Below are positions 7,972 through 11,552 of a stretch of DNA of 64,000 nt, in pieces (position 1 is the stretch's first letter; every line of letters begins with the position of its first letter). This stretch comes from Clostridiales bacterium. GTDB lineage: Bacteria > Bacillota > Clostridia > TANB77 > CAG-508. The stretch lies in contig SVGD01000002.1 of the NCBI GenBank assembly GCA_015056485.1, positions 71,662 to 135,661 of the forward strand, given 5' to 3'. A program made the translations under genes and the position numbers. The notes beneath the pieces were generated by a model. The model worked only from the letters and a program-made list of their open reading frames with translations, was not told the origin of the DNA and made no database searches.

Positions 7972-8000
7972 TTGCTTTTTTATGTAAATTGTAGTATAAT
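7972..8000 (+). promoter_or_regulatory. sigma-A-like promoter (TTGCTT-17-TATAAT), copy 1 of shared promoter module
   Basis: cTTGCTTttttatgtaaattgtagTATAAT; near-identical to 39300, 40058, 40298. Confidence 0.6.
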
Positions 8001-8035
8001 ATAATAGAAAAAAATATAGAAAGGGGATATCTCCC

Positions 8036-8368
8036 ATGTTAATCGCAATTTTATTCTTGTCCCTCGCAAGCGCAGGTATTCTTGAAGTTATCGCCGTTCC
8101 AACAATTTTCTTCGGAATCTTGTTGGCCTTTATACCTAAAAAAGAAAATTCAAAAGGTATAGGGGTCAGAGGATTTGGCGTAATACTTGCAGGAGTATCA
8201 ATAATGGTGTTTGCTGCGCTTAAAATCTTTGAAGCGTATTTAACATATTGGCTCTTTTGGGTAGGTTTTATTTTTATTGTTACTGCAATCATCGGTATCG
8301 TAACATTAATATTCAATAAAACCAAACACCTTCCAGTATGGGCAAAAATCATTCTTGCAATCCTCTAA
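8036..8368 (+). CDS. small 3-TM membrane protein, GC-rich islet gene
   Basis: 110 aa, RBS AAAGGGGAT 7 nt upstream, GC about 40% vs about 25% surroundings; antisense ORF 7930..8352 judged spurious. Confidence 0.55.
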   Translation: MLIAILFLSLASAGILEVIAVPTIFFGILLAFIPKKENSKGIGVRGFGVILAGVSIMVFAALKIFEAYLTYWLFWVGFIFIVTAIIGIVTLIFNKTKHLPVWAKIILAIL

Positions 8369-8380
8369 ATCTGCGCGAAA

Positions 8381-8437
8381 GAAAGTCTCTACTGTATAAG
8401 TCTCATTTGCTACAACAGTGAGACTTTCTTTTTTTAT
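8381..8437. terminator. bidirectional intrinsic terminator between convergent genes
   Basis: GAAAGTCTC...GAGACTTTC stem followed by T7. Confidence 0.6.
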
Positions 8438-8497
8438 TACGAGATAGCCAGATTATCTTTTACGTAATAAAAAAAGTGACCTTTACGTCCACCTCTT

Positions 8498-8950
8498 TTA
8501 ACAATCCATATCATAAAAGAAGAAAATATGGACTCCCCTTTCTTTCTTGGGAAGAGAAAATCTCATTTCGTGTTCTTTCATCTCCTTAGTCTCCTCTATA
8601 TAATCAAATACTGTTGCTGAGAAAGTTTTTCCCGCCAATTTCGTTATGTCGCGATGTGTATCTTCGACATAGTTTCCGATGTTTTCTTCAATTTCGCTTG
8701 CCAACAATCCATCTGAGCATATTACAAGAAGCTTTGTATGTGCTATATATATTGTGTGACCGTCAGCTGTTTTTACTTTAGTTAATAAGTTCCGCATTTC
8801 TGAATATCTTTCGGACAAATATTCTCCTTCAAACAAGTAATAAATGGTATCATGCTTTTGTCCTCTCTCTTTACGAGTAAGTTTTGAAAATACAGGGATT
8901 TCGGACTTTCTAATTTTTTTGATTGTTCTGATTGCTACTGTTCTTGACAT
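8498..8950 (-). CDS. hypothetical cytoplasmic protein, GC-rich islet gene; contains an in-frame CGG (Arg52)
   Basis: 150 aa ORF, about 40% GC; codon atg CGG aac in frame (+ coords 8790-8792). Confidence 0.45.
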   Translation of the reverse strand: MSRTVAIRTIKKIRKSEIPVFSKLTRKERGQKHDTIYYLFEGEYLSERYSEMRNLLTKVKTADGHTIYIAHTKLLVICSDGLLASEIEENIGNYVEDTHRDITKLAGKTFSATVFDYIEETKEMKEHEMRFSLPKKERGVHIFFFYDMDC

Positions 8951-9071
8951 GGATTTTCTCCTCCAATATATATTTTTTTGAAAAGGAATGCTAAAATAGC
9001 ATCTCGCTATATATATTATTGCAGCATTTTATGTTTATTAAGTTAAACTAATCAAAATTTATTAGTACCTC

Positions 9072-9112
9072 AAAAAATATGCACGTACTTTATTATACGT
9101 GCATATTTTTAC
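9072..9112. terminator. palindromic terminator downstream of cotJC
   Basis: AAATATGCACGTA...TACGTGCATATTT perfect 13-nt stem then T-run. Confidence 0.55.
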
Positions 9113-9122
9113 TTAAAATTTA

Positions 9123-9749
9123 TTATTCACATTTCATATTTTTATTCATATAAAATTTCTTTTCTGCTAATTTATCTTGTACTCCTCTTAATGCCTCTCC
9201 AAATCTTTGGAAATGAACTACTTCTCTTTCTCTTAAGAAACGAAGTGGATCTAATACATCTGGGTCATCCGCACATAAATCTATAAGTTTTTCATAAGTT
9301 GCTCTAGCTTTTTGCTCTGCTGCTAAATCTTCTTGTAAGTCTGCTATTGGGTCACCTTTTACAGCAATTGTTGCTGCATTCCATGGCCATCCTCCTGCCG
9401 CTTGTGGATATACTCCTGTACCATGATCTGTATAATATGCTCCTAAACCTTCTCTTTCTAAAGTTTTAGCATCTATTCCATCTGTCAATTGGTGTACAAT
9501 TGTTCCAACCATTTCTAAATGTGCTAATTCTTCTGTACCAATATCATTTAAAATAGCTTTTGATTTTTGGTCAGGCATTCCAAATCTTTGTGATAAATAT
9601 CTAAGAGATGCTGCAAGCTCGCCATCTGGTCCACCATATTGTGATATTATAAATTTTGCTAAACGTGGGTTTGGAGTTTTTATATTTATTGGATATTCTA
9701 AAACTTTATTATAAGTCCACATTAAAAATTCCCCCTTTCCCATGGCCAT
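9123..9749 (-). CDS. cotJC: spore coat protein CotJC (manganese catalase family)
   Basis: 208 aa; ferritin-like Mn-catalase motifs (EELAHLEMVGTIV, ADLQEDLAAEQKARATYE). Confidence 0.9.
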   Translation of the reverse strand: MAMGKGEFLMWTYNKVLEYPINIKTPNPRLAKFIISQYGGPDGELAASLRYLSQRFGMPDQKSKAILNDIGTEELAHLEMVGTIVHQLTDGIDAKTLEREGLGAYYTDHGTGVYPQAAGGWPWNAATIAVKGDPIADLQEDLAAEQKARATYEKLIDLCADDPDVLDPLRFLREREVVHFQRFGEALRGVQDKLAEKKFYMNKNMKCE

Positions 9750-10036
9750 GGTTCCTCAAGCCATCTCCATTTGTTACATGGAAAATAAATACTAAGTGGT
9801 CCATAAACCTTTTGATACATATCTTTTAAATTTTTTAAATTTTTAGTATATTCTCTGTGTAAGCATAAAGCTCTTTGGTCCTCAGGGTGAGTATCTAAAT
9901 ATAGACCTAATTCAATTACTGCAAAGTTTAAACATTTAATCTGTTCTATCATTTCTTCTCTTTTACTGTCTTTACATTCATTTCTATTTTCTTCGCATTT
10001 TGTTTCTTCACATTTACAATCTTTATTATCTATCAT
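9722..10036 (-). CDS. cotJB: spore coat protein CotJB
   Basis: 104 aa, NFAVIELGLYLDTHPED...WRWLEEPWPWE CotJB signature; overlaps cotJC start. Confidence 0.85.
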   Translation of the reverse strand: MIDNKDCKCEETKCEENRNECKDSKREEMIEQIKCLNFAVIELGLYLDTHPEDQRALCLHREYTKNLKNLKDMYQKVYGPLSIYFPCNKWRWLEEPWPWERGNF

Positions 10037-10377
10037 CGATTACAACCCTCCCCCATTTTATTTGATTTTTTTAAATACTCTATTTGCATTTGTGACTGTC
10101 CTGGCATATATGGACTAACTAATTCTGGAAATATGGTTCCCATTTTTAGTCCAACACATGGAGTAAATGTTTTTTTCATCGTTTGCCATGGCACATAACT
10201 TTGTGCATACATATAATTGCTTGGGAAAGTATTATCTTCATCAAAACCACAACTACACATATCTGTATTATTGTATGAATTTAAAACATCTGCGCATGTT
10301 TGTTCCATATAATTATCATCATATTCATCATATTTATGATTACACCCACAATTGCAACTTCTAGTGTTTCTATACAT
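10033..10377 (-). CDS. cotJA: spore coat-associated protein CotJA
   Basis: 114 aa Cys/Tyr-rich, first gene of cotJABC arrangement. Confidence 0.75.
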   Translation of the reverse strand: MYRNTRSCNCGCNHKYDEYDDNYMEQTCADVLNSYNNTDMCSCGFDEDNTFPSNYMYAQSYVPWQTMKKTFTPCVGLKMGTIFPELVSPYMPGQSQMQIEYLKKSNKMGEGCNR

Positions 10378-10474
10378 ATAAATCCTCCTTTTTGTATATA
10401 TTACATTTTATGATTTTATTACAAAAAAAGTGCAAAAAAATATTCCAGTTGGTATTCGTAAATTTACATAACAT

Positions 10475-10503
10475 TTGTTTTTTTTAGGAATTTATGGTAT
10501 AAT
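10475..10503 (+). promoter_or_regulatory. extended -10 promoter for GC-rich lipoprotein gene
   Basis: TTGTTT-17-TGgTATAAT. Confidence 0.5.
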
Positions 10504-10637
10504 ATATACGTAATTAATTTTAGTATTCCTGATTAATATGAATTTAAGACGGATAAGGTTAAGGAGCTGTTCTTAATCGATTGGGTTTTGCTAAAATAAG
10601 TACATTGAAATTTATTTTTTATTTGGAGGAAAAAGTT

Positions 10638-11495
10638 ATGACCACTACTAAAAAAGTTTTCACTCGCGTTGTCACAGTCATTTTCATTATCGCTCTCCTT
10701 ATCTTCTCATTCGCAACATGTAGCAGCAATACCAGCACCGGCACAGATTCCGCAACATCCGTTACAGACCCCGCACCCGGCCTCAAGTTTGTAGAATACC
10801 CGTCCATAAGCCCCGTATTCGACAATGAATATTCCAAAATGTCAGAAGAAGAAAAAGGAGAATATAAATCCAGTCTTCTTTCAGCTTATTTCAACGCCTT
10901 GGAGGCTTATTATCCCCAGGATCATCTTGAAATAAATGCAGACTATTCTTCTGAGCACAATCTCTACTATCCGGTGGAGTTCCAGGAAGAGGTACGTACC
11001 GGTTATTCATCAGACTTCCTAATTGGAGTCGATGAGAATGGTTACCTTAAGGCTTCCTGGCTTTCCAATGTCGACTTCGGCAGCGCTATTGTTTTCGAAG
11101 AAAGCCTTGAAGAGTATCAAGAAATCGTACTTCGCTCACGCAATTGTTGGGTTGTTTACAACTCACTTTCCGGTGAGTTGTTGAAGTATCACCTCATCAA
11201 AGGCGAAGAGCAAATTGGGTTCGTACCTAAAGGCTCAAATTATGTAGGAGAATCCAATAGATATGACTTATATTTCCAGTCTGGAGATAAAATCTATCAG
11301 ATGGATAGTAATGGCAGCATCACATTGCTCGCTGAAAATGTCGACTATGTGATTGATTGTGATTATGATCTCACAGTTGATTCCCCCAGCGAACCACTCT
11401 TTATGATGGAGGATGGCTCCGTAAAGGCCTATCTTTATTATAAAGATGGAGGTAGTCTGGTAGATCCTCGAGACTACAGAGATTACCTTAAATAA
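10638..11495 (+). CDS. putative lipoprotein, GC-rich islet gene
   Basis: Start ATG 10638 with GGAGG RBS (track start 10581 is an N-ext); signal peptide + lipobox FATC; about 45% GC, codon usage (gcc, acc, ggc, ctc) unlike host genes. Confidence 0.6.
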   Translation: MTTTKKVFTRVVTVIFIIALLIFSFATCSSNTSTGTDSATSVTDPAPGLKFVEYPSISPVFDNEYSKMSEEEKGEYKSSLLSAYFNALEAYYPQDHLEINADYSSEHNLYYPVEFQEEVRTGYSSDFLIGVDENGYLKASWLSNVDFGSAIVFEESLEEYQEIVLRSRNCWVVYNSLSGELLKYHLIKGEEQIGFVPKGSNYVGESNRYDLYFQSGDKIYQMDSNGSITLLAENVDYVIDCDYDLTVDSPSEPLFMMEDGSVKAYLYYKDGGSLVDPRDYRDYLK

Positions 11496-11511
11496 AATTA
11501 GCAAAACCCCA

Positions 11512-11552
11512 AAAAGGGCGCCTATCGAAAGATAGTGCGCCCTTTTACCTTT
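11512..11552. terminator. bidirectional intrinsic terminator (lipoprotein gene / pyk)
   Basis: GGGCGCCTATCgaaaGATAGTGCGCCC hairpin + T-run. Confidence 0.6.

Follow-up and report, generated by a model that had tools for sequence, protein, structure and literature searches.

GC-rich single-gene islets in the AT-rich core of a Clostridiales genome, lineage-restricted and most likely acquired horizontally

Phage morons, in the concept of Juhala and Hendrix, often encode a lipoprotein or a membrane protein. Genomic islets and other atypical genes of horizontal origin are viewed within the amelioration framework of Lawrence and Ochman, while hypervariable surface-protein loci achieve antigenic or phage-receptor diversification through allelic mosaicism. 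Intervening elements are also known in sporulation genes, namely skin in sigK, SPbeta in spsM and gin in gerE (PMC4191935, PMC5595907, PMC5025042). Here, we analyzed a window (the whole stretch of 64,000 nucleotides) from contig SVGD01000002.1 of the metagenome-assembled genome GCA_015056485.1, which comes from an uncultured gut or rumen Clostridia/Clostridiales bacterium (locus tags E7310_01830 and E7310_01835) with Clostridium sp. CAG:343 and CAG:245 among its relatives. Three GC-rich islets of one gene each, named isl1, isl2 and isl3, stand in this AT-rich window (27.9% GC) between an acyl-ACP thioesterase gene and the pyruvate kinase gene pyk.

The islets are lineage-restricted accessory genes and were most likely acquired horizontally. 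We consider it probable that all three are moron-like, monocistronic units of horizontal origin, and that isl3 was diversified by allelic recombination. They would be an example of single foreign genes entering the conserved core of a reduced and extremely AT-rich bacterium as full transcription units, with no visible mobility genes.

Composition, layout and distribution of the islets

The base composition of the islets was compared with that of the window's 56 other open reading frames (ORFs) with 100 codons or more. These baseline ORFs have a GC content of 0.273 ± 0.031 (range 0.21–0.34) and a GC content at third codon positions (GC3) of 0.127 ± 0.034, with a maximum of 0.24. The GC3 values of the three islets are well outside this spread of core genes, as listed below together with the other features of the locus (PWM, position weight matrix; z for genes refers to GC3, z for hairpins to folding energy).

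7167–7901, minus strand: acyl-ACP thioesterase gene, core, left flank of the islets (Pfam PF01643, PF20791; GC3 0.15)
7971–8000, plus strand: predicted isl1 promoter, TTGCTT, 17-nt spacer and TATAAT with TG before it (PWM 37.1 bits)
8036–8368, plus strand: isl1, ORF call, 110-aa ORFan with 3–4 hydrophobic segments (GC 0.357; GC3 0.32, z 5.8)
8377–8432, plus strand: predicted isl1 intrinsic terminator, 18-bp interrupted stem then U-run (−22.5 kcal/mol, z −4.9)
8468–8500, minus strand: isl2 terminator-like hairpin then U-run, overlapping the stop codon, weaker (−15 kcal/mol for a 65-nt stretch, z −2.8)
8498–8950, minus strand: isl2, 150-aa soluble protein with seven homologues at 52–100% identity (GC 0.344; GC3 0.31, z 5.4)
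8951–9047, minus strand: isl2 promoter and leader block, conserved with the coding sequence (CDS) in three different genomic contexts
9073–9110, minus strand: predicted cotJC terminator, inverted repeat I5, perfect 15-bp stem (−20.4 kcal/mol, z −5.7)
9123–10377, minus strand: cotJA-cotJB-cotJC operon, core (Pfam PF11007, PF12652, PF05067; GC3 0.14–0.21, host-like)
10474–10503, plus strand: predicted isl3 promoter, same class as that of isl1, spacer 17–18 nt (PWM 31.7 bits)
10516–10597, plus strand: isl3-family 5' leader, structured and conserved, about 82 nt, long outer helix enclosing a hairpin region, AAAGGAG/UUCC core
10638–11495, plus strand: isl3, 285-aa predicted lipoprotein, N-terminal helical region and C-terminal beta-propeller-like domain (AlphaFold2 pLDDT 77; GC 0.421; GC3 0.43, z 8.8)
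10640–11079, plus strand: hypervariable 5' two-thirds of isl3 (48–62% DNA identity to relative L087, flanks about 95%)
11512–11546, both strands: GC-rich bidirectional terminator common to isl3 and pyk (−24.2 kcal/mol on plus, −23.3 on minus; z −6.6 after isl3)
11555–12994, minus strand: pyruvate kinase gene pyk, core, right flank (Pfam PF00224, PF02887)

A sequence-only reading of this DNA had put all three islets at 40–45% GC, a figure that fits isl3 (42%) and overstates isl1 (36%) and isl2 (34%); its core of about 25% GC is indeed AT-rich, with a measured value of about 27% over the 56 ORFs. The promoter-bearing intergenic regions of the islets are host-like, with a GC content of 0.23. The shift in composition therefore coincides with the CDS and its terminator. 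A strand effect was rejected as the cause of the high GC3, as a core gene on the plus strand (55747–56916) has a GC3 of 0.14 and isl2 lies on the minus strand. Codon bias linked to secretion was rejected as well, given the GC3 of 0.09 found for a core secreted protein (13042–14118). A seventh GC3-high ORF in the window, at 56932–57174, was discarded because it is an antisense frame of rpmF.

The gene order is thioesterase (−), isl1 (+), isl2 (−), cotJABC (−), isl3 (+) and pyk (−). The three islet ORFs are found between thioesterase and pyk at the coordinates where the sequence-only reading had placed them, and Pfam bears out its naming of thioesterase, cotJABC and pyk as the flanking genes. 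CotJC, a Mn catalase, is intact in the window (208 aa, Pfam E 1e-53), and its terminator stands between cotJC and the isl2 unit. The identical layout was read in all 24 independent contigs (JGI, ENA), which extend up to several hundred kb, and the islet proteins are also recorded in NCBI and Logan assemblies. An assembly artefact is excluded by these 24 contigs.

A scan for CotJC with one genome per species gave 80 loci from relatives, each covering as much as 10 kb to either side as far as the contig extended. No member of the isl2 or isl3 families was detected near cotJC in these 80 loci by tblastn or profile searches. At least nine species (L007, L008, L014, L026, L044, L054, L055, L057 and L072), seven of them read base by base, have an empty gap of 120–330 nt that runs from pyk through a terminator and the cotJA promoter (CATA...GTAATATA) to cotJA and holds no ORF. 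The corresponding gap of the window measures 1177 nt and contains the isl3 unit, with the cotJA promoter kept. This adjacency is seen for the isl3 side only; the isl1/isl2 side has no alignable empty site.

The relative L087 (GCA_017437145.1) shares about 95% core DNA identity with the window, and its pyruvate kinase, GlgP and BipA proteins are 97%, 99% and 99.7% identical, respectively; the CotJA, CotJB and CotJC proteins are at 93–99%. It retains isl2 and isl3 in place, with GC3 values of 0.28 and 0.48; isl1 is absent and the left flank is unrelated. Core genes compared with L087 have synonymous divergences (dS) of 0.11–0.27 and ratios of nonsynonymous to synonymous divergence (dN/dS) of 0.03–0.18, with pyk, glgP and bipA at 0.03–0.05. 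The same comparison gives dS 0.54 and dN/dS 0.37 for isl2 (69% protein identity) and dN/dS 0.23–0.32 for isl3 (65% protein identity). Hence, isl2 and isl3 are real genes under purifying but relaxed selection.

Synteny was the check proposed by the sequence-only reading, with conservation in place at unchanged composition counting against import. The isl2 and isl3 families are absent near cotJC in the 80 species, and isl2 and isl3 are syntenic with the same composition in L087, so such conservation is found in part. In addition, two more distant relatives (L102 and L113, pyruvate kinase 71–77% identical) carry a distant isl3-family copy of about 31–34% identity in the same cotJA–pyk gap, at a near-host GC3 of 0.21–0.23. 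In two further loci, L091 (770–1891) and L108 (138–1250), this gap holds an extra GC-rich gene (GC3 0.41–0.43), whose secreted product of 370–373 aa has a transmembrane segment at its C terminus and a DxSxS motif (vWA/MIDAS-like). The gene adjoins several AT-rich genes, amidoligase-like among them. These differing gene sets mark the cotJA–pyk gap as a variable hotspot.

Beyond pyk, an approximately 20-kb polysaccharide locus of capsule or teichoic-acid type (13042–32800; Wzz, CpsB, glycerophosphotransferase, flippase and others) is absent from L087 despite the core identity of about 95%, and pyk adjoins glgP there. Its genes are AT-rich (GC3 0.09–0.18), in contrast to the islets.

Transcription signals, leader RNA and alleles of isl3

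Each islet appears to have a promoter of its own, as the sequence-only reading had proposed. Those predicted for isl1 and isl3 are TG-extended and have TTGnnn as −35 element, and that of isl3 is 96–100% identical across all six alleles. The isl2 match is weaker (TTAGCA-18-TATATT) and belongs to a conserved block; indeed, blastn homology of isl2 to L092 and L112 begins about 97 nt 5' of the start codon. The PWM was built on six sites 5' of GC-rich units in the window, which score 29–38 bits in their own matrix and 18–35 bits when each is left out in turn. The next-best site (13.9 bits) is the promoter of another islet gene, and the rest of the 64 kb scores at most 9.6 bits. The pattern TTATGTAAAN{4,9}TATAMT has 4 matches against 0.03 expected. 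In 1.45 Mb of related loci, about half of the sites with this consensus precede GC3-high ORFs and ordinary genes are also preceded, which led us to reject a mobile promoter; the class shared by the GC-rich units is probably the optimal sigma-A promoter of the clade.

The sequence-only reading likewise gave each islet an intrinsic terminator. Folding revealed a hairpin and U-run after all three, weaker for isl2, and a simple consensus scanner gave none. It is important to note that promoter, leader and CDS, for isl2 as for isl3, are found again as one block in unrelated contexts (for isl2, the mobile element of L092 and the vicinity of phoU in L112). This recurrence makes "individually promoter-equipped units" a fair description.

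The isl3 leader is a candidate cis-regulatory RNA. The intergenic region is alignable with those of L102 and L113, and a related leader lies 5' of family members at unrelated loci. Copies were located in L113 (9878–9961), L102 (5557–5637), L095 (671–748) and L099 (382–454), with the conserved core GAAAGGAG-UUCC; L098 has only a related core motif. A covariance model built on five leaders (R1) scores 73 bits in the window and 64–83 bits over its five leaders. Nothing else in 1.49 Mb exceeded 28 bits, and neither the L098 variants nor new members were recovered. Pairing is kept in 80.6% of cells, against 64% for shuffled and 36–53% for slid controls, in an alignment that is model-biased and includes three weak hits; in this same biased alignment, both partners have changed in 16 of 19 pairs. 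Folding of single sequences gave modest z values, from −0.35 to −3.6. No Rfam family matched the leader at E ≤ 10, and none reached its gathering score anywhere in the window. The leader may control isl3 translation, for example if its UUCC tract paired alternatively with the Shine-Dalgarno sequence or with another part of the leader. With its covariation support and no Rfam match, this ~82-nt leader is a candidate new RNA tied to the isl3 family.

The isl3 product is predicted to be a surface lipoprotein with a propeller-like binding domain. A hydrophobic stretch at residues 4–33 accompanies the lipobox cysteine Cys28, which is invariant in six close alleles; the lipoprotein with an FATC lipobox named by the sequence-only reading is thus well founded as a prediction. 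FATC is atypical in its Thr at −1, and distant family members have the canonical L-[AS]-[GA]-C. In structure comparisons, the C-terminal domain of the model was all-beta, with generic, weak propeller and WD40 matches only. A profile search of 1.84 billion representatives (E ≤ 1e-3) brought together 114 clusters at 50% identity, none with a named member. Most members are full-length (260–330 aa) and show the motif SDxWSQPLFLMxDGSxKxY besides a canonical lipobox. In many AT-rich contigs they stand as GC-rich islands of one gene; members read in their genomic context had the following GC3 values.

L095: isl3-family gene, GC3 0.31, neighbors 0.16; directly downstream of a split cotJC
L098: two tandem copies, GC3 0.51 and 0.40, neighbors 0.15
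L099: GC3 0.48, neighbors 0.11
L100: GC3 0.53, neighbors 0.12
L101: GC3 0.50, neighbors 0.14
L102: GC3 0.21, neighbors 0.14
L104: GC3 0.40, neighbors not available
L113: GC3 0.23, neighbors 0.12
L115: GC3 0.38, neighbors about 0.13

Two more members, L103 and L105, are in GC-richer contigs. The protein tree of the family is discordant with synteny; indeed, L102 is nearest to the non-syntenic L101, P0017 and P0031.

Six isl3 alleles were aligned at the DNA level. Blocks jump from 98–100% to 30–60% identity at sharp breakpoints and in varied combinations, and the 110 nt 5' of isl3 are 97–100% identical. Against L087, the 5' two-thirds of the gene have a dS of 1.62 (dN/dS 0.27) and the 3' third a dS of 0.31 (dN/dS 0.23). 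The saturated dS of the 5' part indicates replacement by a divergent allele and not rapid evolution in place. In the N-terminal two-thirds, the variation involves all bases and affects about 45% of the sites. A diversity-generating retroelement (DGR) was rejected as its source, as the variation is not A-specific, no reverse transcriptase lies among the neighbors and the variable region is not repeated; integron and invertible-promoter mechanisms were also rejected, since no suitable repeats or recombinases were found in the region. With alleles that are strongly mosaic between near-identical strains, the isl3 family is a candidate determinant of phage or host interaction.

isl1, isl2, cotJC and a second GC-rich cluster

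No homologue of isl1 was found among 5.8 billion proteins besides isl1 itself. The plus-strand ORF is favored by its promoter, its Shine-Dalgarno sequence (AAAGGGGA) and its terminator, and its product is a predicted small polytopic membrane protein. An antisense ORF of 140 aa (7930–8352, minus strand) overlaps isl1 and is called as a gene in one public assembly (L002). The isl2 protein has no hydrophobic segment and no signal peptide, and it is therefore neither a membrane nor a secreted protein. The sequence-only reading, which saw small membrane or secreted proteins in the islets (a 3-TM protein and a lipoprotein), agrees with isl1 and isl3 and not with isl2. The AlphaFold2 model of isl2 had a pLDDT of 44 and was left out of the fold search.

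The homologues of isl2 suggest that its product is a soluble protein associated with mobile elements. In L092–L094, two nested elements, each with a large serine recombinase, divide cotJC into three parts (3845–17657 in L092). The first cargo gene of the second of these elements, P0012, is an isl2 homologue at 54% identity. It is read in the direction of cotJC, with a cotJC fragment a few hundred nt upstream, and its GC3 of 0.19 is near the host value. Another homologue, P0008 in L112, adjoins phoU, and no element is visible around it. In the window, 172 nt separate the end of cotJC from isl2, which follows it in the same direction, and no recombinase, helicase or cotJC fragment was found near isl1 or isl2. 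The cotJC gene is also interrupted in L050, L052, L062, L070, L095 and L113, that is, in at least seven relatives when L092 is included. The L113 element carries a tyrosine integrase and a TraG-like gene, at a GC3 of 0.29–0.36 against 0.10–0.13 for the host. The interrupted gene, recombinase and attachment (att) site of a skin-like element were all found in L092 and L095, and not in the window. These gene arrangements suggest that intervening elements of the skin type have targeted cotJC repeatedly in this clade. We found no description of cotJC in this role in the literature searched.

A second GC-rich cluster is located at 39299–41643 of the window, with promoters of the same class as in the first.

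39448–39921: lipoprotein gene, lipobox LVTC (dS 0.15, dN/dS 0.32 against L087)
About 40086–40290 and about 40327–40495: two ORF-less units ending in terminator hairpins
40599/40680–40994 and 41203–41643: two genes for N-terminally anchored proteins

The leader of the 39448 gene and the two ORF-less units have a common RNA element, with a hairpin CCUUCUGA..UCAGAAGG, ACAUCC and UUCAGUUGGAUAA, that gave no match in Rfam. The ORF-less units could be small RNAs or an orphan leader. The GC skew of the plus strand is negative across the whole window, and nearly all core genes are on the minus strand. Both ORF-less units, and all but one of the six GC-rich protein genes, lie on the plus strand, opposite to the surrounding core genes. 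They would be head-on to replication if the minus strand is the leading one, as the skew suggests.

Origin of the islets and comparison with known systems

In the reading that we favor, each unit combines a CDS with its own leader, a sigma-A promoter close to consensus and an intrinsic terminator, and would have entered an intergenic gap of the conserved backbone (thioesterase, cotJABC, pyk) of a lineage of about 28% GC by horizontal transfer. The high GC content would come from an origin in, or ongoing exchange with, a GC-richer gene pool, and insertion may have occurred by illegitimate recombination or through decay of an integrated element, with subsequent retention under relaxed purifying selection. 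The isl3 product would be a surface-anchored binding lipoprotein whose variable part was diversified by homologous recombination between alleles, with diversifying selection presumably exerted by phage or host. A GC-richer pool is supported by the L103 and L105 contigs and by the L113 element, and repeated import from it explains the GC excess of the family in AT-rich hosts.

Several observations weigh against this reading. Homology searches returned the seven isl2 homologues and the 114 isl3 clusters, with none for isl1, and no donor emerged. Megablast with the region and tblastn with isl2 and isl3 gave no matches in the phage and plasmid collections, nor did a profile built from distant isl3-family members (A3) in IMG/VR. 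A phage or plasmid origin was rejected on these grounds; PHROG and NCBIfam also gave nothing, and Pfam hits were below threshold. No integrase, att/attC-like site or flanking direct or inverted repeat was found at the islets, which leaves the insertion mechanism conjectural. All isl3-family members in AT-rich contexts are GC-enriched (GC3 0.21–0.53 against 0.10–0.16), and this family-wide excess, together with the conserved AT-rich promoter and leader, would also be expected from a maintained GC bias; composition alone is no proof of recent transfer. Free amelioration under the host bias predicts a ratio of about 5:1 for changes from G/C to A/T (S>W) over the reverse (W>S), and the polarized singletons, a small sample, stand at 12 against 7 (6 against 2 at third positions). 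Finally, the presence of a family member in the same gap in two distant lineages indicates that residence may be old. As for the horizontally acquired, promoter-equipped cassettes of the sequence-only reading, accessory insertions with their own promoters in recurring blocks were indeed found, and cassette machinery was not: the region contains no attC-like repeat and no integrase as in integron gene cassettes, and the units carry their own promoters.

It is possible, though doubtful, that isl2 and perhaps isl1 were not inserted singly and are what remains of an integrative element that targeted cotJC, of the skin-like kind that a large serine recombinase would excise in relatives. The position of P0012 as first cargo gene near a cotJC fragment, the matching place and orientation of isl2 3' of cotJC in the window, and the splitting of cotJC in at least seven relatives all point in this direction. 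However, cotJC of the window is intact with its own terminator, its surroundings hold no recombinase, helicase or cotJC fragment, P0008 sits beside phoU away from any visible element, and L087 has isl2 next to an unrelated left flank with no isl1. It is highly improbable that the GC-rich stretches are chimeras created by assembly or binning, or that the ORFs are not genes. The lack of an isl1 homologue and the antisense ORF called instead in one assembly would fit such a view, but 24 independent contigs from JGI and ENA show one and the same arrangement, NCBI and Logan also contain the proteins, isl2 and isl3 have homologues and dN/dS values well under 1, and promoters, Shine-Dalgarno sites and terminators match the called strands.

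We also judge it unlikely that the islets are long-term residents whose high GC is actively maintained, either by GC-biased gene conversion (gBGC) tied to isl3 recombination or by codon or mRNA selection on strongly transcribed surface-protein genes. Such maintenance would account for the GC3 above the host value in 13 of 13 family members in AT-rich contexts, for AT-rich promoters and leaders conserved with the CDS across lineages, for a cotJA–pyk gap filled in three lineages, for the clear recombination mosaics of isl3 and for a singleton ratio of just 12:7. The lipoprotein gene at 39448–39921 also fits, with its core-like dS against L087 and a GC3 of 0.41–0.45 in both genomes. On the other hand, the GC3 range of the family is wide, with L102 (0.21) and L101 (0.50) being 42% identical, and the anomaly is common to unrelated genes (isl1, isl2, 41203–41643 and the vWA-like gene of L091). 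Moreover, core secreted proteins, such as the one at 13042–14118, have normal GC3, and GC along isl3 does not follow the variable segments. To our knowledge, the reported effects of gBGC in bacteria amount to a few percent, not 30 points. The broader proposition, in which high GC is a maintained trait of strongly transcribed, mostly head-on accessory surface-protein genes and the isl3 family is under a travelling, previously undescribed leader RNA, seems quite unlikely to us; if true, it would bear on what sets local base composition in bacteria.

Acquisition of single units by horizontal transfer, the reading preferred here, invites comparison with the systems introduced above. With the sporulation intervening elements, the resemblance lies in the relatives, where the mother-cell gene cotJC is broken up by elements that encode a large serine recombinase, one of them with an isl2 homologue as cargo. 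The window differs in its intact cotJC, with no recombinase or att site, and isl2 would be linked to such elements by the homology of one cargo gene only. Hypervariable surface loci have their counterpart in isl3: behind a conserved promoter and signal peptide, segments drop sharply to 30–60% identity in strains with about 95% core identity; isl3 differs in having no silent cassettes, DGR reverse transcriptase, invertible promoter or repeats.

The likeness to phage morons extends to the single CDS, the sigma-70-type promoter, the factor-independent terminator and the atypical composition, and isl3 stands between genes that are adjacent in relatives. In contrast to morons, the islets are in the chromosomal core among sporulation and glycolysis genes, with no phage genes and no phage-database matches. 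Given these neighbors and the lack of hits in PHROG, phage and IMG/VR collections, we describe the islets as moron-like in working and not as phage morons. Genomic islets share with them the atypical GC3, the patchy distribution, the relaxed constraint and the intergenic junctions. Here, however, the genes are GC-rich within an extremely AT-rich host, stand singly without tRNA, integrase or repeat hallmarks, show allele-level mosaicism at one locus and have a family-wide GC excess that is not fully explained by the islet model. The phenomenon is of a known kind; what stands out is the isl3 lipoprotein family, with its hypervariable alleles, its leader RNA and a GC excess seen throughout.

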